Assembly: GCA_030295235.1 (NCBI GenBank)
Contig: AP026130.1
Location: 62,001 to 126,000, forward strand
Source of the DNA: Fistulifera solaris
Taxonomy: Eukaryota
DNA length: 64,000 bases
Reading direction: 5' to 3'
The notes under the pieces: model-generated
Told to the model about the DNA's origin: nothing
Seen by the model: the letters and a program-made list of their open reading frames with translations, nothing else
Database searches by the model: none
Translations under genes and position numbers: made by a program
Part shown: piece by piece, positions 40,305-63,815 of the stretch
Layout of the letters: every line of letters starts with the position of its first letter
Position numbering within the stretch: position 1 is the first letter of the stretch

Positions 40305-43300
40305 TTACTTTGATTTGGTGCCGTATTTCTTGTGCGCGGCTTCGACCATGCCAGCGACGACTTCCATGCCGCGCGATTCCCATTCCTGACGGTTCTTTTC
40401 CGCATAATTCAAATATTCATCGCTGGAAACCCCAAAGACACCGCACTCGCGCAACTTCTTCGCCAAGGGAATAATGTAAAAGTCAAAGAAGCCGATTTCT
40501 CCCTTATACCAGTTGTCTGATGGATCGGTGGCGGAGCGACCTTGAATGTAGGCGCTGTACAATTCTTCGAACAATCGTTCATTCCATTTGCGGTAAATGT
40601 GCCAGTGTTGCATTGTGTGCGAGACATCTGAGGCTTGAATCAAGTGCTCAATGACAATGGTTGCCTTGCGATCGACGGCGTCTTTCAGTGACTCTTCGAC
40701 GTTGTCCCCAGCAAAAGCCTTTTCCCAGCGTTTGTTGCGAAGGCACTTCAGGTCCTTGTCCATAATGTCAGTGGCCATGACCGAGTTGACCACCAGTTGA
40801 CGGAAACGCACGCGCTCATATTCTGTAGGACAGATCGCCAGTCGCAAGTCGTTGAAATTGTTGTCTTGGAGCAACTCCCACGATAAATCGACCGAGTTCT
40901 GTTCGGCAATACTCTTCTCGCGGTAGTATTTGGCGAGCTGAGGATTTTCAACAATCAACTGTGTGTTGGGGACACCGACGTGGTCGACATCATGAATCAA
41001 AGCCGAAAAGACACAGGCAAACTGCGTGAGCGGATCCGATGTAATACCGTACGTGTAATCGTGAAGAGTCGATTCCAAGTCGCTGTTTGTCGCGTCGACA
41101 TCGGGAGTTACAATTCGAGAAAGGAGCTTGACGACCGACATGGTCACATGTGACGCATGTTCAAAGTTGTGGAATGGGTTGTTACGATACATGGAAGCAA
41201 TCGCCGAAACGTATTCGCGGAGTTGATCCATGACGACCTTGCTGAGTTCTTCTTCTTTGCTTTCGTTGTTCTTGCATTTCTTGAAGACAGGCATGCGGAT
41301 GATCTCTTGTACTTCGTCCAAAGGCGTCGTTGCTATTTTGGAGAAACTCATATGGCGGATAGATTCCTGAGTGCTCAAGATATCCTTGCGACGCGCAATG
41401 ATGTTCTTCAGCAAGGACGCGAGAACTTCGACATTCCATTTAACAAGACGATCTGTTTTCTCATCCAAAACGGGGGCCATGGCGTCATGAGGTGCGCCAT
41501 CAATGTGGTTTTCATCGTATTCTCCAGACCCGTCGGTTTCGCTGGACGCGTTTTCACTTCGAGCTTGGTTCGATGCTTTGGTTGTGACGAGCCAGTATGT
41601 CTGCAGCTCGCCCTTTCCTTTGCGACAACAGTCTCTTCGCGCGGAGCCACCCAGTGTTCTTTGCCTGCCGCTATCAACAATCTGGCAGTTTCTTGAGACA
41701 TGTGAATCTTTCCAGGGAGTCCATTCGATTCCATTCTGCTGGCTGTGTTCATCGTGTCACCAAACAGCTGGAATCGAGAACGCTCGCCACGAAGAACACC
41801 GGCCGTCACCGGACCGCTGTGCAAGCCGACACGCATTTGCAGTTCGGTCGTATCAGGACCAAGAAGCACTTCTAGTTTGCGCGTCAATATATCCATCTTT
41901 TGAACGCAATCCAACGCAAAGCGACACATTGCCACTGCGTGGTCTTTTCGAGGATCTGGCAGCCCGGTCACAGCGACATAACAATCACCCACGGTCTCGA
42001 CCTTGAAAACGCGACGAGCCTTGGCGATATCGTCCATTGCCTTGTAAATGGTTTCCAACAAGATAAAGACTTGCGTTGGTTCTCGCATGGAACTCCAGGC
42101 AGTGAAACCTGACAAAAAAGAAAGCAAACAGCAGCAATGGAAGGTTAAATAAAGGAATACTGTAAGACCTGTAGCTCGCTCGTATCACTTCGCTTTCGCA
42201 TTTGGTACCTACCTGCCAGATCTAAGGTTTGATATGACATCAAAAGATGAAACAAGGAGTTAAAGATGCGCATGATGGACAACGACTCGCTCTTCGCAAG
42301 CTCTTCAGTATTTTTAGTGCTTACCTGCGAAGAGAACTGTGGTTTCTGGAAAAAGATCAGCAATAGGCTTGGTCTTGTACATGTACTGGTCGTTTTCATC
42401 ACCGCCACCAGCCGCTTCGTTGTCTTCGTCATTTCCAGTTGATAGATACGATTTCAAACGACTTTTTCCGTTGAGCGCCTTCTTTTCGTCGCTTTCATCT
42501 TTGGCTTGGGCAAAGATGCGGTCGCGCACGTTGGAAGGAAAAAGGGATGATACAATTCGCGTTGGTTTGGGTCATTGCAACTAGCATTTTACGATTTCGT
42601 CGACCGACAAAGCGGTCAAACATAAGAAAAGCCGTTATCATGAACGCAAAGGCAAACACAAGCATTGTCGTTGCTTGGACAGGATTCGATGAGTGGTACC
42701 GTTCTGCAAACGCTGCGGTTGGATACACGTGAAGGTAAAGAGACAGTGACCTTCGACAGATGCAAACTCCTCTTCGGTCAAACCATCTTCGAGTTCAAAA
42801 AGGGGATGATCTCTTCCATGTGATTGTAATGGGTATCATGCAGATCACCCGGACCTATATATGTGACCTGAAGCAGAGTGGTGCGTCAGTGCAATTTTTC
42901 ATCCTATGCAGGCCACACTTCTATTGATAGCAACTTACCGATGTTCCTTGTAGAGTGTATGTGAACGACTGATTGCAGCTGTTCTTTAGAACCGCAATAA
43001 TGTCGGAAGCTCCTTCGGGTAGTAGATTCACCATGTTTGAATCCCAAAAAAATATGCTGTATACTTTCCCGGCAATCTTTGCAGTGTCTAGGTCTAACAA
43101 GCTGTCAAACACGGGATGGCCAATGGCACAGACTGGGGGGAAATTTTCAGTTCCGGGCAGTGGTTCAAGTACTTCCGACATGACGGCCCGTCGGAATGTT
43201 TCAATTGCATTATTACTCGTGTTCGCCCCATATCCATAGCTATCAAAGTTGATCTCATAAGTGGAACGCACTGGAGGAGAGGCTTGCCAACGTGGACCCC

Positions 43301-49165: not shown

Positions 49166-49790
49166 CCAGCAAGTTATCGCGGACTCGCGATAAATATCCC
49201 GAGCTCGCGATAATTATCGCGGATATTTATCGCCTATCCGGGATATTTATCCCCGGCACGCGATATTTCTTTTGAATTCCAAATTCCATTTCTGCCCTAT
49301 TGCCTCGAAAATGAAATTCAGCGCACAGAACGCATTAGAGTTTTGCGAATAGCCTAGAAAAAACGAAGACACGCTTGCAACTTGCAACTGCAACCGATCA
49401 AGCACTTTCAAATATCGACCACTCTTGTTCTTGTCACTTGTCGTTCATCTGAAAAAGCTCCTACTCGCTCCAAGAAAAGTCACCAGCAACAATCTTACGC
49501 GCCTCAGTCACTCGGCATTAGATATACTTCTTGCGCACAGCCATGACAAGGTGATGCTCGTGTTGCAGTTGTTGTTAATAAACCTTACGAAGTACGCAGT
49601 CGTTTGATAACCTTACTGCAGAACGTTTAAGGTTGCGAGGGCCTTGATTGGCGATGGAATTTCATGCAGCGCCAGACGGAATCTTACTTATCATCTCCGG
49701 GCGATAATTATCGTGGATAATTATCGCGTATCCGCGATAAATATCCCCGATCCGGGATAATTATCGCCGGTTGAGATAATTAAACGCTGC
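49166..49790. mobile_element. Degenerate MITE-like element with GATA(A/T)(A/T)TATC subterminal arrays at both ends
   Basis: Clusters of gcgataattatcgc / gataaatatccc at 49170-49257 and 49688-49782. Imperfect CAGC...GCTG ends; no TSD seen. Confidence 0.5.
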
Positions 49791-50727
49791 TGCCGAGAAA
49801 CATCGCTTGAAAGACAATCATATTTTTCAGTTACGTCAATGTGATCTACTCCTAAATCCTGAAAATCGCTAAAACACCCAAAATTGAAGCTCTTTAGGCC
49901 ATTTCTACTGAGTACTATTTATCAGAGATATGTATAAGTCTTTTCTTCCTTGATGTTTCCATTCAGTCGATTCGGATCGTATCGGTTACCAAGAGCTACA
50001 GACTGTTGATAGTGTTTTCCCCATTGCTGTTCGCCACATATAGACGTACTGTTGAAAGGTCAGTCCGATGACGGTGAATGACGGATAATCGTCTTCGCGA
50101 TAATTTAACGCCGTGCCCTGTATCAAAATAAATACTATGGTGGATAGTGTAGACTCACTTATCCACGACTGCACTTCAGTCATGAATCCATTTTCTTTCG
50201 AGCTTATTATCGAGCGACAATGCTGCCTACAATTGTTTGTCAAAAAAGTTCTTGAGCTTCATTTGTTGCTATTGCAATGAGATAGGCTTAAGCAGCGTTG
50301 TTCCAGTCAATCTCATCGAAATGAAGCGGACCCGCAGTACTGTAACTTTTAAAACGGAACATTCTCTCCTTCTTGCTCAGTCACGCGAAATGCCTTTACT
50401 GTAACAGTTTTTTGAAAGCAGATGATCAGAGTGAATCAGAGAAATTAACACTTCCGAAAGTCTTTCAAGATTAAAGTTGCTTTTTCTTAGGTCGGTTTAA
50501 TTTTGGAAGCGTTAACGCTTAACATCACACTCGAAGATGGAGTAGACACGAGAAAACTGGTTGTTGAAACTGTTTCATTCTACAGCTAACAAGCTTGTTC
50601 GAATTCAATGCAAAGCGCCTGCGCATGAAAAGCAAAGGGTAATAAAGAAAAACGACCAAAGCAAAAGTAAAAAGGCAGGTCCACTCAGGAACTGCGGAAT
50701 CAATTAGATTAATTCATTCCTTCTTTG

Positions 50728-53236
50728 CTACAATTTTGCGGAGAGCAGGCGCAACCCCTCGAAACCAAAGTACATTCCCTTGAAGAGATGATATTTCTGT
50801 CGATGTTTGATTGCTTCTGCTAATGCTTCCTCGTATCCAAGCTTTTCAATGGAGAAATGCGTCTGATCTTCTGTCGATGCAGTTGACCCGTAAGGTGTAT
50901 AAACACGAACCGATGCCACCCAAAAAGCCCACTTTTTCTTGTCATGACTGCGCTTACGATACACGCCAACAATCGAACCATCCTCGCGTTTTCCTTCGTG
51001 GTTAATCTTCCGATTGTTTGCCTGGAAGAGCTTATGTCGCGGAAGAAGATTACCAATTTTGTTGTTCGATCGGTTGTGATCTTTATGATCGCATGTTTCT
51101 TTCTCCGTCAACGGACGACCGATAAAGCATCCTGCGAGAAACCGACTGAAATCAACTGTTTTCTTCCCGGCCGCATACGGAATGCTGATCCTATACTTCA
51201 CGAAACCATTCTTGTATTCCTTCTTCTGGATATCGATATGCTTCCCAGTGCGCGTGTTGATGACATGCGTCCCATCTCCGCTCGCAAAGATAAAGTCACA
51301 TTCGGGGTCTTTGTAGTAGTCGCATTTGAGAAGTTTATAATGGTCTTCATCGATATCAAGATTGGACAGCTCGTAGTTCTTATGCGGGGCGCTTGAAGTG
51401 TTAGAAAAAGAAACAACTTGTCGTTAGTTTCATTTGTCTCTTTCCTGTTCAAGATAGCCAGCAAAACTTACTTTTGATCTTGATCGATATTCTCCTTTTG
51501 ACTATTCTCAGAGCGAGGTATCCAGCGTAGGAAATAAATGCTATTGTTGGACCGCGCACCAATGTGATCACCGACGTAGCCCTGTGGGCGTTTCCCTTCA
51601 AATGTAATCAAGCTCATGTGGTGAACGAAGAATTTCTTGCTGGTTTTGTTGCACGCAGCACTGTAGAGAGTTGCCCGGAGATACCCTTCAAGGTCAGGCT
51701 GGGCGCTGAGAATGGTATACGATCTGGTGAATAATCGAGAACCTTCACGCTTGCCTAACAGCTCCATCATTCCTGCTGCAATGTCCGCCTTGTTCCGCAT
51801 GCCATGCTCCCCGACTCCCTGCGACCAACCGACTCTGCAACACACAATGAAGCCGTCTTCGTGCATGTAGTAAACTCGGGGATGAAAGTAATGAACATTC
51901 CCATCCTTGTATCTCTTCACCGCAACTAGCACATGTCCATTCACATCAACTTCGTAATAAATGTCTCCATTCTTCTCGGGAATTACTTCGGGATTCTCCA
52001 CAAAGTCCGTGTTGGTCCCTAGCAGAAACTTCTTGCTCTTTTCTTCGTCTTCGTCATCGGCATTTTCTTTCTTCGGTTTGGCCTTGGTAGGTTTTAGAAT
52101 GGCGGGCTTCGTTTCGCCTTTTGAACGTCCAGGATCGATGCCGTATTCGTCATCTGTGTCGTAATCCGGTGCATCCTGTGTGCGTTCGGCAGACTTATCA
52201 CATCCGTTCAGATAGAAGAGATCAGGGGGAATCTTTTTCAACTTGCCAGCTCGCAACCAGGTATTTACAAACTTTGCCGGAAGATCGGATTCCACTGATA
52301 GTATCTGATTGCTGTACACGTTTTCGAAAATTGCCATTTCCTCGTCAGTCGCATATTTAGGGACATACTCGGTTCGCCATCCTCGACGGACAACAGAAGA
52401 ATCTTTCGGAATTGTATCACTCGAAACTGGAGAGAAAACTTTCCCAGTTTTGATGCTTTTCTTCCGCCATTGTCCCTTTTCTTTCTTCCGACTATTCCGC
52501 TTTCGCTTCCGACTTTCCACACCGGAGGCCTTGGGACTGTATGCTTTGTCCTCCGACGTGACAGCGGAGGACTTCGGACTGTATTCTATGTCCTCCGACT
52601 TGAGTTTGCCCCTGGTACTTTCGACGGTACGTTTGACAGTGCATTCGACGGTGCTGTCATCAAGGAAAGTCAGGTCAACCACGTCGCTTTTTTCGAAATC
52701 GGTCAAGAAACTGTCGCAAATCTCGACATTATCATCGCCGGTAGAGTCGCCAACAATGCTGTCATCGTCTAAAGTCATATCAACCGCGTTGTCGCTAGAA
52801 GATCCAACAGGACTGGTGGCGTTATGATCTGAGTCACCAGCAGCGTAGCTTTCTCCAGCGGAGATTACCTCATCGGCGACAGGAGCTTTCGAAGCCAAAT
52901 CCTTGTGTAAGCCAAACGATAGAACTGTTTGGACGAACTTCTTTCGAGGCGAAGGCTTAGAGCTCGGAGGTAAAACGGCAAAATTCTGGCGCAATTGAGC
53001 TACGCCTAGCTTTATTGACGACGCGTTGCACTCCTCTGGACTGATTTTGAGCAGCTTGTTCGACGTCGAAACGGCGGGTAAATCACCAGAGGGTTGATTT
53101 TTGCATGAGCATTCTTTTTCCGAGACATTGCCTTTCCAAAGCTCTTCATCATTTCAAGCACGCGCTCCGTACGGGAGGCATTCGACCTTGACGAGCTGTC
53201 GGAGTCGGAGCAGTTTTCGAATTCGTTGAGGTCCAT
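50728..53236 (-). CDS. Protein with two HNH endonuclease motifs and a C-terminal AP2-like domain (2 exons)
   Basis: HNH1 VGDHIGARSNNS..LRWIPRSEN; HNH2 CDHKDHNRSNNKIGNL...NNR; AP2 GVYRK...WVASVR...FSIEKLGYEEALAEAIKHR. An 80-bp intron (51471-51392, GTAAGT..AAG) joins in frame. One frameshift at ~53155. Confidence 0.75.
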
Positions 53237-53745
53237 TGTCAAGACGTGGGAGATTAGTAGAGACGGTAAAATATCAAACTCAAGTCCGGTAAAAGTGTGT
53301 GCTTTTCCTGCTAAGCAAACAACTTCTGTTGTCCGTGCCTGTTGCCCGAGCGAGCATACGGGAACAGATCATCTTGGGTGTGTCTGGTAAACGTAAACAT
53401 CAAAGGTCATCAGACATTCGATTAGAATGCTGGCAGGGTAGTGGTTTTTTTTTGACACATTGTTGCTATTGTATCCCTCCCCGTTTCCCGTATATTGTTC
53501 ACCGAGTGACTTAGTCTAGACACGAGGATTCTTGCGGTTTTTTGTCAACATTTCTGAGCAGCGACAAAACAACTGGGTCTCATGTCGAAATAATCATCAT
53601 CTCCGATCTGCCGATCCGATCTGTGATCTTTTTTTATTTTTTACAGCCGCGCAGTGCGCCAAAAAACGACACGTCGTTTGTCTTCAAAGAAACGTGCCAG
53701 TGCGACAAAGATCAAAATTACCAAAAGTCGTCAAAGAAAACGAAC

Positions 53746-53843
53746 GGTCCACTCCGGGAATCGAACCCGGGACCACAACCAAGACTGGCTCAATCACTGA
53801 TTGAACTCCCTAAAGTTGTATCATACCACTAGACCAAGTGGAC
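53746..53843 (-). tRNA. trnP: tRNA-Pro(AGG) with a 26-nt intron
   Basis: Acceptor stem GTCCACT/AGTGGAC, D-arm TGGTCTAGTGGTATGAT, anticodon arm CAACT-TT-AGG-G, intron after position 37, T-arm CCGGGTTCGATTCCCGG, and a downstream T-run. Confidence 0.9.
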
Positions 53844-54050
53844 GCTTGTTGCTTCTAGGGGGTACTTTGACTATTTAAAGACTGCCAATATTGAAACCAA
53901 AATATTGACGACAAAAAGCCGATAGAAAATTATTGCAATGGTTGCCACAGAAATAGGATGCTCTTGCTGTCATAAACCAAGGTTACGCTTTGTTTATCCT
54001 CCCTCTAACACATCGAATAACGGCAGCGTACGCCGTTGTGTCGATCGAAT

Positions 54051-60129: not shown

Positions 60130-61337
60130 TTAGCGTTTGCTGGCTCGAAGAAGGCTTTTTCCTTCGTTTTGCAGCATGGCTTCCTTCTCAAGATCGCTCA
60201 TCACATGAACAGTCATGATCCCCACGCGCTCTTTGAACCTAAAGTTGATACAACGAAAAAGGTAAGTAAGTTGACATCTGATGTGCTACTCTTTGACTAG
60301 AGAGAATCTTACCATACTCCATTCAATGTCGGACAGGCCTCTAGTCGTTGAATGGTGTCTATGCCCCAAATGATGCGGCCGAAACAGGGATCCCCTATGT
60401 GAAGTTCGGTATTGTCCGCCGTATTGATGTAAAAACTTGGACTGCCGTCCGCAGCGAATGCTATTGTGTATGGCTGGTGTGGGTATTCGGGACTGTATTC
60501 TTTGAATGCCACGGTTTCCAGGTTCGCGTCCGAAAACTGCCGTGCCTTATCTTTGGCGGACGTCCGATCGTAGGGTAGAGGAGCTGCTTTGATGACTTGC
60601 AAAGCATTCAAGATGAAAGAACAATTATCCCACAAATGATTTGTTACCATGGCTAAGAACGTTTGAATGGAATGCGGCATCAGTTCGGTAGGTGCTAGCT
60701 CTACCACAAACTTATCCGGTCCGGGTCGACCATCGGGGAATACTAACACGAACAGGACATGAATCGGCGCTTTTCCGTATATTCGTCTCACTTCTTCAAT
60801 GCTGTCTTTTTGTACACGCTGCTTCAGCGTCAAAGCTTTCGAAGTATGTTTATCGACACGCTGCTGCAATTTTTTCATTTCCGTCAAAGCGCGCAAATTG
60901 GCTACTTTCATTTGTTGTTGAGAATCCATGCCAGTAGTCACTTGCAGCATTTTATCAACGGCATCCAATTCTCGCTTTAGTTTATTCAACTCTGTTTCAG
61001 CTTTCCCCATCAGTTCTTCTAGCGTTTGTCGATTGTTTTGCATGTAAACGACTTGTTGGGATGTGTAACTCACGGCCGTTCGAGACATTTGTACCACAAA
61101 CAAGCCCGATGCTACGCAAGCGACAAAGAACCACGATATTCGAGATTTCTGTCTCGCCTCCTTCTTATTGATGGGCTGCGATTTAAGAGGAATGCCAGAG
61201 AGCGCTACTCGCTCGCCTCTGGATGAAAATGAATCATCCAGAGAACTAGAACTAAGCTGGAGCTTTGAGCTTGGCTTACATGTAAGTTTTAACAGCCGAG
61301 GGTCTAACTCCACGTCGTCTTTCGACGCATCGTTCAT
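60130..61337 (-). CDS. Type II membrane cyclophilin-like protein, paralog 1 (2 exons)
   Basis: TM, coiled coil, then VELAPTELMPHS..., FKEYSPEYPH, FYINTADN and DPCFGRI. Intron ~60311-60239. Confidence 0.75.
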
Positions 61338-61539
61338 GATTCACTATTGATGGCTCGTAGTGTTTTGCAGGTTAACATAATTGCAATGTAATTGCACGGA
61401 AACAGCTGGGATTATATAAAGAAAAAGGCAAAAACAAAATGTCTTCTTGCGTCGCCCACACAGGCGTCGCCAACAATTTGGTGAGAATGTCGCTGCGCGT
61501 CTCACGGTTGTATAGAGCCAAATGTTAAATGTTAGTTCA

Positions 61540-62316: not shown

Positions 62317-63427
62317 TTAAGCACGTGTCTTGAACCGTTTCTTTGGGTCAACACCGGAGTTGTCAAGGATTGTAGCCGATTGGATGCCCACACGTTGCGT
62401 GAACCAAACCCCGTTGCGGGTGGGAAAAGACTCGAGACGATGAATGGTATCGAAACCCTGAACCACGGTTCCGAAACATGGATCTCCTTCGTGGGCGAAC
62501 GTATTATCGGCTGTATTGAGAAAAAAGTTGGGACTCCCGTCGGCCGTGAAACCCATCGTGTACTTTTGATGCGGGAATTGCGGATGGTATTCTTTGAAGG
62601 CGAGCTGATCGAGACCCAAGTCGGCAAACGATTGCGCTTTCACTTTGGCGGAACTGCCATCGTAGGGTAGCGGAGACGCTTTGATGACATTCAAGGCACT
62701 CATAATAAACGAACAACCATCAATCAGCTGGTTGGATACCATATCCAGGAACGCTTCGACTGCATGGGGCATGAGTTCACTCGGAGCGAGTTCCATTACG
62801 AACTGGTGGGTCCTTTTTGCCATCGGCAAACACCAGTTCGAATTCCACACGATGAACTCCGGTTCCGTACTTTTGGTAAATGCCGGCGAGACTCGCCGCT
62901 TGTATTTTCTTCCGCAGTCCGTCGGCTTGCTTTTCAAACTGATCGACGCGGTCTTGCGCTCTCATCATCTGATGCATGGCACGAATGTTCGAGACCTTCA
63001 TGATTTCGTTGCTCGGTGCCGTTTCGGACATCATGTTGATCGCATGGATTTGCCGCTTCAAGCGATTGAGCTCACTTTCCACACTGACCGACTTTTCGTA
63101 GAGCAGTTTCCGGGTGTGTTCCATGGCCAACACTTGTTCGCGGGTGTTTCCTACTACTTGTCGGGAAATATAACCGAAGGCGCATCCTAGGATCAGGCAT
63201 GTCGCAAAGACCCATGAGACTCGCGGACCGGTTTTACGCCGGTAAGGATTCTTGTAGTTTTCGGATGGAGATATTATTGGGACGAAAGGGAGGACTGTTT
63301 CGGCGCTGGGGGATTGTGGATTTGCCATGAAACGAATTTGAGCTGGACTGATGATTCGCTGTGATGCTTCCTCGCAGTCGTGGAAATGCGAATGCAACTC
63401 GAAGGAATCGCTGTCATCGTCGCTCAT
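62317..63427 (-). CDS. Type II membrane cyclophilin-like protein, paralog 2 (frameshifted)
   Basis: Same architecture as paralog 1 (MELAPSELMPHA, FKEYHPQFPH, GDPCFGTV). Frameshift at ~62820. Confidence 0.75.
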
Positions 63428-63815
63428 TATTGTGAATGTTTCTTCAAGAACTGATGTGCATTAGGCAATTGATGCACATTTCGATAATAAATCGTTTGTG
63501 AATGAAGTATAGTTGCAGCAAAGCTATTCTCATTTTGCTTCTTTTGTTGGTTGCGTGTGTTGCGTGAGATGTGATGCGCGCGTTTTCGTCGTTGCGTTTT
63601 TGGTCTTGGTCATAATGACTGTATTATGAGCTTCAGTGTAGCATGAATGACCCTTTACCGTGTACGGAAGCTGACAAAACTATAACGCCATCATCACGAC
63701 TTGCAATACCTCTCTTTAATTTAGTTTATAACATTTCCTAACTAAAGATTGTTATTTGAATTCTAAGATACAGACTATGTACAAAAACATGCGCGCAACA
63801 CCATAAACTGGGCGC

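Follow-up and report, generated by a model that had tools for sequence, protein, structure and literature searches.

HNH-AP2 homing endonucleases, in which an HNH nuclease module is combined with a C-terminal AP2 domain, are the proposed ancestors of the AP2 transcription factors. To our knowledge, examples come from phages, bacteria and the germline-limited DNA of a ciliate, and those described have one HNH module each; the reports of Magnani and of Wuitschick, both from 2004, are said to place them in phages, in cyanobacteria and in the germline-limited Tlr elements of Tetrahymena. Here we describe a related gene from the diatom Fistulifera solaris, found in a stretch of 64,000 nucleotides (nt) of the assembly GCA_030295235.1 (contig AP026130.1, positions 62,001 to 126,000), which we call the window and to whose positions all coordinates refer. 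The gene lies on the minus strand, as does the transfer RNA (tRNA)-Pro gene that precedes it. Its predicted protein shares with the described systems the combination of HNH nuclease and a probable C-terminal AP2 part, and with the Tetrahymena case its eukaryotic, nuclear setting, but differs from them in a doubled nuclease, a conserved spliceosomal-type intron, a family-specific N-terminal domain and ordinary gene surroundings. Our tentative reading, to which we assign a probability of roughly 45% as a whole, is that of an intact nuclear gene which derives from a tandem I-HmuI-type HNH homing endonuclease with an AP2 tail and belongs to a chromosome-resident family.

Several other systems are instructive for comparison. 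The monomeric enzyme I-HmuI (PDB 1U3E) employs His75 as general base and an asparagine to bind its single metal ion (PMC3384342, in part). Together with the phage HNH_3 proteins, it has in common with the present protein an N-terminal β-sheet, a ββα-metal core and the His/Asn motif. By contrast, the protein described here has two such modules per chain, about 190 additional conserved residues before the first of them and an AP2 tail instead of a helical or NUMOD tail, and its gene is chromosomal in a eukaryote and bears an intron. AP2 domains have been tied to homing endonucleases and integrases of mobile elements, the ciliate case included (PMC4117751, in part). Two HNH_3 stretches and a DNA-binding tail on one polypeptide, as seen here, also characterize the tandem NUMOD4-HNH_3 endonucleases (P0024, P0034 and P0036 in our searches), whose tails, however, are of the helix-turn-helix (HTH) or NUMOD1 type rather than AP2, whose NUMOD4 parts are recognized by Pfam, and which are encoded by uninterrupted open reading frames (ORFs) without an added N-terminal domain. 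Finally, 171 HNH endonuclease genes have been counted within the spliceosomal introns, termed ‘shintrons’, of protist mirusviruses (PMC12768974, in part). HNH homing enzymes therefore do work in protist nuclei, alongside the spliceosome, which is a likeness to the present gene. Yet in shintrons the endonuclease gene lies inside the intron of a viral gene, whereas here an endonuclease-like gene is itself split by a small intron and is part of a chromosome.

The layout of the gene largely follows a first-pass annotation made from the letters of the window, which had proposed an 80-bp GT-AG intron, one frameshift in an A-run, a protein of roughly 800 residues with an acidic N-terminus and a basic tract resembling a nuclear localization signal (NLS), two HNH motifs and a C-terminal AP2-like domain. 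All of these are recovered, the AP2-like domain as a probable assignment and the frameshift with a different meaning, as detailed below. The parts of the gene are listed in the direction of transcription.

53236-53234, minus strand: start codon, 509 nt beyond the 3' end of the tRNA
51472..53236, minus strand: exon 1, 588 codons plus 2 nt when the missing A is counted, from the ORF and P0001
~52365-53236, minus strand: acidic, low-complexity N-terminal region, from the translation
53093..53098, minus strand: A-run (5 A near 53097) with one base missing in the assembly, an apparent frameshift
52458..52511, minus strand: basic NLS-like tract of 18 residues inside the acidic region, from the translation
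52185..52364, minus strand: family-specific small α/β domain, model residues 1-60, conserved in relatives
51474..52067, minus strand: β-rich extension and HNH module 1 (HNH_3 motif at ~51501-51626), from AlphaFold2, Foldseek, VIA and PHROGs
51392..51471, minus strand: intron, 80 nt, GT-AG, phase 2
50714..51391, minus strand: exon 2, from the ORF; corrected stop at 50716-50714, stop of the uncorrected frame at 50730-50728
50968..51336, minus strand: HNH module 2, exon 2 residues 19-141, from VIA, Foldseek and PHROGs
50758..50940, minus strand: AP2-like, predicted DNA-binding domain, exon 2 residues 151-211, Pfam AP2 at E 3.5e-4

The nuclease assignment is carried by structural models and by the conservation of the catalytic residues. 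AlphaFold2 models were built for a piece of 297 residues that includes module 1 (24-row alignment) and for a piece of 220 residues from exon 2 (28-row alignment). The former reached a predicted local distance difference test score (pLDDT) of 82.9 and a predicted template modelling score of 0.81, the latter a pLDDT of 65.4 overall and of 72-87 over its nuclease part. Both are closest to I-HmuI, chain 1u3e_M, which Foldseek ranked first for module 1 (E 8.9e-4, probability 1.00) and for module 2 (E 4.9e-3, probability 0.99). The superpositions in VIA gave Z 9.8 for module 1 (root-mean-square deviation 2.6 over 104 aligned residues), the next chain being I-PpoI at Z 3.9, and Z 7.0 for module 2 (3.3 over 102 aligned residues), followed by a match at Z 3.1. 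In each case, the match covers I-HmuI residues 1-106, the catalytic domain, and both modules have its fold. Likewise, both modules match ‘HNH endonuclease’ families in PHROGs, namely phrog_1492 (module 1, E 1.8e-7) and phrog_959 (module 2, E 6.9e-8). Pfam HNH_3 (PF13392, cut-off 24.8 bits) scores 14.9 bits on module 1 (E 0.02) and 19.1 bits on module 2 (E 0.001), while two relatives pass the cut-off, P0015 with 31.9 bits and P0040 with 53.8 bits in two stretches. NCBIfam gave no match for the protein pieces. A match of exon 2 to Rab, obtained in a single-sequence search of the PDB, was dismissed as chance.

The catalytic histidines have not degenerated. His558 of module 1 is present in 17 of 17 aligned sequences, and among relatives at 23-48% identity the first asparagine of this module is kept in 12 of 15 (aspartate in the other 3) and the last in 14 of 15. 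In module 2, H102, N110 and N125 (exon 2 numbering) are invariant across 28 aligned rows, phage-type proteins included, and the histidine and both asparagines are found in all three full-length members. As a profile, these 28 rows match I-HmuI with their motifs in register (E 2.6e-33), an E-value that is driven by the phage rows and that we use for mapping only. By analogy to I-HmuI, the conserved histidine of each module would act as general base and a conserved asparagine would hold one divalent metal ion. Since each of the two modules has the catalytic set, a single polypeptide could cut both strands, where one module would only nick. The evidence thus supports a derivative of the HNH-AP2 homing endonucleases with two I-HmuI-like modules whose catalytic residues are kept, and the protein is most likely still a site-specific nuclease. 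If they are active, such proteins would be compact single-chain enzymes of eukaryotic origin that make double-strand cuts at long sites.

The C-terminal domain is less clear-cut. It reaches 21.2 bits against Pfam AP2 (PF00847), and the homologous part of P0015 reaches 28.2 bits (E 2.4e-6); since both fall under the cut-off of 33.3 bits, we label the domain ‘AP2-like’ rather than as a Pfam-certified AP2. Run against 177,635 PDB sequences, a five-row profile matched the AP2/ERF domain of TEM1 best (E 0.019). The plant and algal AP2/ERF factors to which TEM1 belongs would share the signature of three strands and a helix with the domain described here, but they are devoid of nuclease modules, and the present domain differs from them in its score under the Pfam cut-off and in its second hairpin, which is longer by an insertion of about 12 residues. 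On balance, an AP2 assignment with a predicted DNA-binding role is probable. Together with the small β-sheets of the two I-HmuI-like modules, this domain might read a long, asymmetric DNA site.

Read as it stands in the assembly, the gene appears broken into two stop-to-stop frames (53153-51468, 561 residues, and 51423-50728, 231 residues, both on the minus strand), with frameshifts both in exon 1 and close to the stop. As a related copy has decayed (see below), one might take it for a frameshifted pseudogene, a decaying relic, which we consider very unlikely in view of additional sequence. A contig of 3922 letters from run X1 spans 50600-53900 without substitutions, and a contig from X2, a wetland metagenome, spans the same place; X1 may share its source with the window, while X2 is independent. 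Behind 53097, contigs of both runs contain an extra T (depth 16.8 of 16.8 in X1 and 8.9 of 8.9 in X2), and P0001, a protein of 589 residues from a JGI metagenome that is 100% identical to the 561-residue ORF over residues 240-561, runs in frame through the A-run from the same ATG. As all three carry the missing base, the frameshift noticed in the first pass is indeed present in this assembly, but it is a homopolymer error of the assembly and no lesion. A second loss of 1 nt, which the first pass had missed, lies in a C-run near the stop, behind 50754, where X1 and one X2 contig add a C; its correction exchanges the last 8 residues for 13 and shifts the stop to 50716-50714. A third such loss lies outside the gene, behind 53857, where the same two runs again add one base, and it likewise points to assembly error rather than decay. 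Since three losses fall within 3.3 kb, this assembly evidently drops homopolymer bases. Both shifts within the gene are absent from the X1 and X2 contigs, the first also from P0001, and what remains is an otherwise open frame of about 814 codons.

Further apparent frameshifts in the window may be of the same making, for instance that between the overlapping minus-strand frames 40305-41756 and 41408-42184 of a phosphodiesterase/cyclase-like gene.

The intact product of about 814 residues results from 588 codons, one split codon and 225 codons. Exon 1 closes after two codon bases, the intron begins with GTAAGT, carries a branch-like CTAAC about 30 nt before its end and finishes with AG at 51392, and removal of its 80 nt restores the frame; were it retained, a stop would be met at 51470-51468. 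X1 had been guessed to be RNA, although it behaves as DNA, as intron, spacer and tRNA lie in one piece. The runs X6 and X7 contribute short identical contigs over 51550-51725, which carry no information on expression.

Support for the intron comes from relatives instead. An exhaustive protein search with P0001 returned 70 proteins at E<=1e-3, of which 7 reached E<=1e-30; the true relatives form about 24 clusters, P0001 included, and the remainder are ordinary HNH_3 proteins. The part shared by the family corresponds to P0001 residues ~300-589, with 23-48% identity, and comprises the small α/β domain, a disordered insert and then the β-rich extension with the I-HmuI-like core. In this library, relatives are represented by plain ORF calls, 20 of which reach the end of module 1. 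Thirteen of these end 38-41 residues past a conserved Arg-Pro anchor, which is exactly where the intron starts. Two continue with four shared residues, RYVS, which would be GTATGT read in frame; one departs from a close relative at the intron point, and one is ambiguous. The remaining three (P0005, P0015 and P0040) read through in frame into sequence that resembles the start of exon 2. These ORF ends provide indirect but strong support for a phase-2 intron that appears to be both real and old, and since its position is conserved, the family seems to have long resided in eukaryotic nuclei; this is the best sign of such residence. The first pass had proposed a nuclear endonuclease, and the locus does hold a nuclear, intron-bearing HNH-AP2 derivative; the gene is no lone insertion, however, as it belongs to a family in which the position of the intron is conserved.

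The second half of the protein is found less widely. Exon 2 resembles the C-terminal half of P0015 (E 1e-17, 35% identity over 125 residues, covering the second HNH and the AP2 part) and that of P0040 (E 2e-14), and the whole layout of two HNH modules and AP2 is seen in three members, namely the studied gene, P0015 and P0040. A word-index protein search with exon 1 retrieved only P0001 and the fragment P0003, and one with exon 2, among near lengths, nothing; no related loci were found in metagenome contigs, either with alignment A3 or with P0001 as query. A full-text search of the literature turned up no paper on a family of this kind from diatoms or any other stramenopiles. The family is thus apparently undescribed, and what is new about it is its nuclear setting, its intron, and its added N-terminal domain with the basic tract.

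The tandem arrangement that the first pass had singled out is present but not unusual. Tandem HNH_3 occurs in 18 of 45 non-family phage-type matches scanned with Pfam, a sample that combines a set preselected for two stretches with 25 matches showing one stretch each. Those with two stretches usually consist of two NUMOD4-HNH_3 units and a tail of the HTH or NUMOD1 type, and one of the non-family matches, P0046, combines HNH_3 with AP2. As doubling is common among such distant matches, it is not new in itself, and for the same reason the ancestor was likely a viral or phage endonuclease with HNH_3 in tandem. From there, the family would have acquired a spliceosomal intron, always at one position that separates the nuclease modules, an extended acidic N-terminal region that includes the basic, putative import tract, and a conserved N-terminal domain specific to the family.

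The ~300 residues of this N-terminal region are not conserved in the family, except for the basic tract, of which P0002 has a comparable version at the same place, and for short acidic motifs. Judging by its composition, the basic tract may mediate nuclear import and would thereby bring the protein to its presumed site of action in the nucleus. The small α/β domain that follows is modelled with confidence (pLDDT 77-97). Searches with Foldseek and VIA, made within the module-1 piece, found no convincing structural match for this domain or for the β-rich extension before module 1. The acidic coding region contains two repeats (52519-52602 and 52652-52789), a tandem duplication of 42 nt whose copies are 86% alike and a repeat of 33 nt whose copies lie 105 nt apart. 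Translated, the latter gives a short hydrophobic-Asp-Leu/Met-Thr motif with acidic residues behind it, a motif that recurs in P0002 and P0005 and that we take to resemble SUMO-interaction motifs.

A number of points weigh against the reading proposed at the outset. The protein's own HNH_3 and AP2 scores all stay under the curated cut-offs of Pfam. In the AlphaFold2 model, the AP2 part is unreliable (pLDDT 45-70) and helical, rather than a three-stranded sheet on a helix, probably because HTH rows were in the alignment. The contigs that span the locus retain the intron and are DNA. The aspartate that precedes the catalytic histidine of module 1 is found in only 4 of 17 sequences (glutamine in 8, histidine in 4, asparagine in 1), and module 1 could therefore be weakened in many members. 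Finally, the counts of synonymous and non-synonymous changes given below are tiny, and the conserved intron, the added domain and the single X1 copy fit vertical residence and co-option as well as they fit selfishness.

The variable aspartate, together with a phenylalanine that replaces asparagine in the usual Asn-Leu pair of module 1 in the studied protein, would also suit an ordinary AP2-type transcription factor in which the HNH modules no longer cleave and serve for DNA binding or as a scaffold. For diatoms and other algae, catalogues treat AP2/ERF proteins as transcription factors, and Table 3 of one such catalogue, which makes no mention of nucleases, lists two ERF-type AP2 proteins in P. 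tricornutum (PMC4827209, in part). We nevertheless regard this explanation as unlikely: the histidine and the two asparagines are kept in both modules across the family, which is unexpected after a loss of cleavage, and the position before the histidine is equally variable among phage-type HNH_3 rows. Conversely, some of the ‘AP2/ERF transcription factors’ in algal catalogues may be nucleases. The present gene looks like an intermediate on the way from a mobile nuclease to a DNA-binding protein of the host.

Relatives of the gene in the metagenome show turnover. Besides contigs that are 99% alike, X2 holds contigs that are 90-95% alike over 50770-51875. In the latter copy, R501 is changed to a stop codon, 48 nt are deleted in frame in exon 2 (51218-51265), and small insertions and deletions are found near the AP2 part. 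P0003, a fragment of 88 residues from a 52,887-bp NCBI genome contig, has four substitutions in common with this copy and terminates at the very codon of the R501 stop. With the stop, the deletion and the indels of the X2 copy and the matching P0003, this close relative is a pseudogene. In the N-terminal region, near-identical alleles differ by 6 synonymous and 3 non-synonymous codon changes. In the module-1 region, the diverged copy has at least 11 synonymous and at least 9 non-synonymous ones (20 differences listed, 90 further). Run X1 contains one record of at least 90% likeness among 215,296.

Two further features of the X2 contigs were noted. The likeness of the 90-95% copy to the window ends at 50687, about 30 nt past the corrected stop. 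One contig joins 52136 to 53204, so that 1067 nt of N-terminal coding sequence are missing and four other letters stand in their place; this may reflect either a copy with a deletion or a chimera of the metagenome assembly.

These data bear on whether the gene serves its host. It might be a co-opted host nuclease, long since domesticated to cut specific sites in the nucleus, for instance to aid repair or recombination, to rearrange the genome in a programmed way or to fend off nuclear viruses. HO, which derives from a homing endonuclease, offers a parallel. Such a role would be in keeping with the intron position conserved at 23-48% identity, the confidently folded family-specific domain and basic tract, the retained catalytic residues, the ordinary host genes around the locus, the single X1 copy and the excess of synonymous over non-synonymous changes between alleles. 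It is harder to reconcile with the pseudogenization of a close relative, which speaks for dispensability, and with N-terminal regions that are hypervariable among members. While co-option is thus a possibility to be taken seriously, we find it doubtful and give slight preference to an endonuclease gene that is selfish or dispensable and that is homing or did so in the past.

An origin in an integrated virus or a larger mobile element, giant-virus or polinton-like, was considered as well. The nearest feature-space neighbours of P0015 are viral clusters of HNH_3, AP2 and NUMOD4 proteins, some of them from Nucleocytoviricota; direct resemblance to phage sequences is weak, with 13 records matched by tblastn over the HNH part only, at E 1e-4 at best. 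However, no relative was found in IMG/VR viral contigs, either with alignment A3 or with P0015 as query, and the conserved intron is of the spliceosomal type. Moreover, the surroundings are those of a chromosome. The gene is flanked within 3 kb by host genes, and the ordinary neighbours include those for a NIF phosphatase (E 5.1e-12), a prenyltransferase (9.3e-93), a ZIP transporter (2.3e-31), a phosphodiesterase and a cyclophilin. Nearby, the window has no further genes of viral or element type. A repeat scan at the locus found no flanking terminal repeats beyond chance, the G+C content of the gene is like that of its surroundings, and no second copy was found within the window. Residence in a virus or element hence appears extremely improbable, and we return to a free-standing gene in the chromosome and to its tRNA neighbour.

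53746..53843, minus strand: tRNA-Pro(AGG) gene with a 26-nt intron, Rfam RF00005, 46.5 bits (gathering 29), E 1.2e-7
53237..53745, minus strand: spacer of 509 nt between the tRNA 3' end and the ATG, by coordinates

The RF00005 match spans model positions 1-71; the AGG anticodon was read off the alignment, and the 26-nt insertion lies at the canonical intron place. ARAGORN, in bacterial mode, reported no tRNA in the window, although Rfam detects this one. The 509 nt of the spacer, which agree with the ~510 bp estimated in the first pass, presumably hold the promoter and the 5' untranslated region. That annotation had further suggested that the endonuclease may be tRNA-associated. This did not hold up: a 21-nt stretch beyond the gene (50669-50689) resembles the tRNA 3' end with a score of 21, but a score of at least 21 is reached by 4.6% of 1947 random segments of the window, and we therefore rejected it as a duplication of the tRNA 3' end and count it as chance. 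The tRNA-Pro is most likely a mere neighbour of the nuclease gene, and at the single locus examined a functional tie is without support.

A free-standing gene could in principle still be homing in the nuclear chromosome of a sexual, diploid alga, with its target in or beside the tRNA-Pro gene. The intronless homing of SegB, a free-standing endonuclease of phage T4, in a tRNA cluster is an analogue. If so, the gene would be a natural gene drive, which by cutting empty alleles copies itself and the flanking tRNA region into them, and the intact and decayed copies of one metagenome would represent stages of a homing cycle. As a joint claim, with active homing and a tRNA target combined, this is quite improbable.

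Around the tRNA, the X2 contigs vary. One contig agrees with the tRNA exons but has 9 differences inside the tRNA intron (53782-53807), and others, with loose ends at 53808, 53843 and 53852, share the 5' half of the tRNA only. The pattern suggests additional copies of tRNA-Pro that differ in intron and flanks.

Other features of the window were noted in passing. Between the NIF and the nuclease genes, at 49174-49768, lies a structure reminiscent of a miniature inverted-repeat transposable element, with arms of 40-61 nt that are 74-83% complementary and 450-525 nt apart, internal direct copies and short AT-rich palindromic units. A weak match to the C/D-box RNA SNORD19 at 49955-50029 on the minus strand (24.6 bits against a gathering threshold of 35, E 0.53) is probably due to chance. 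Finally, two adjoining paralogous genes on the minus strand (60309-61340 and 62317-63460) encode proteins with a cyclophilin-like C-terminal domain, which in the first of them matches Pfam Pro_isomerase at E 2.9e-9.

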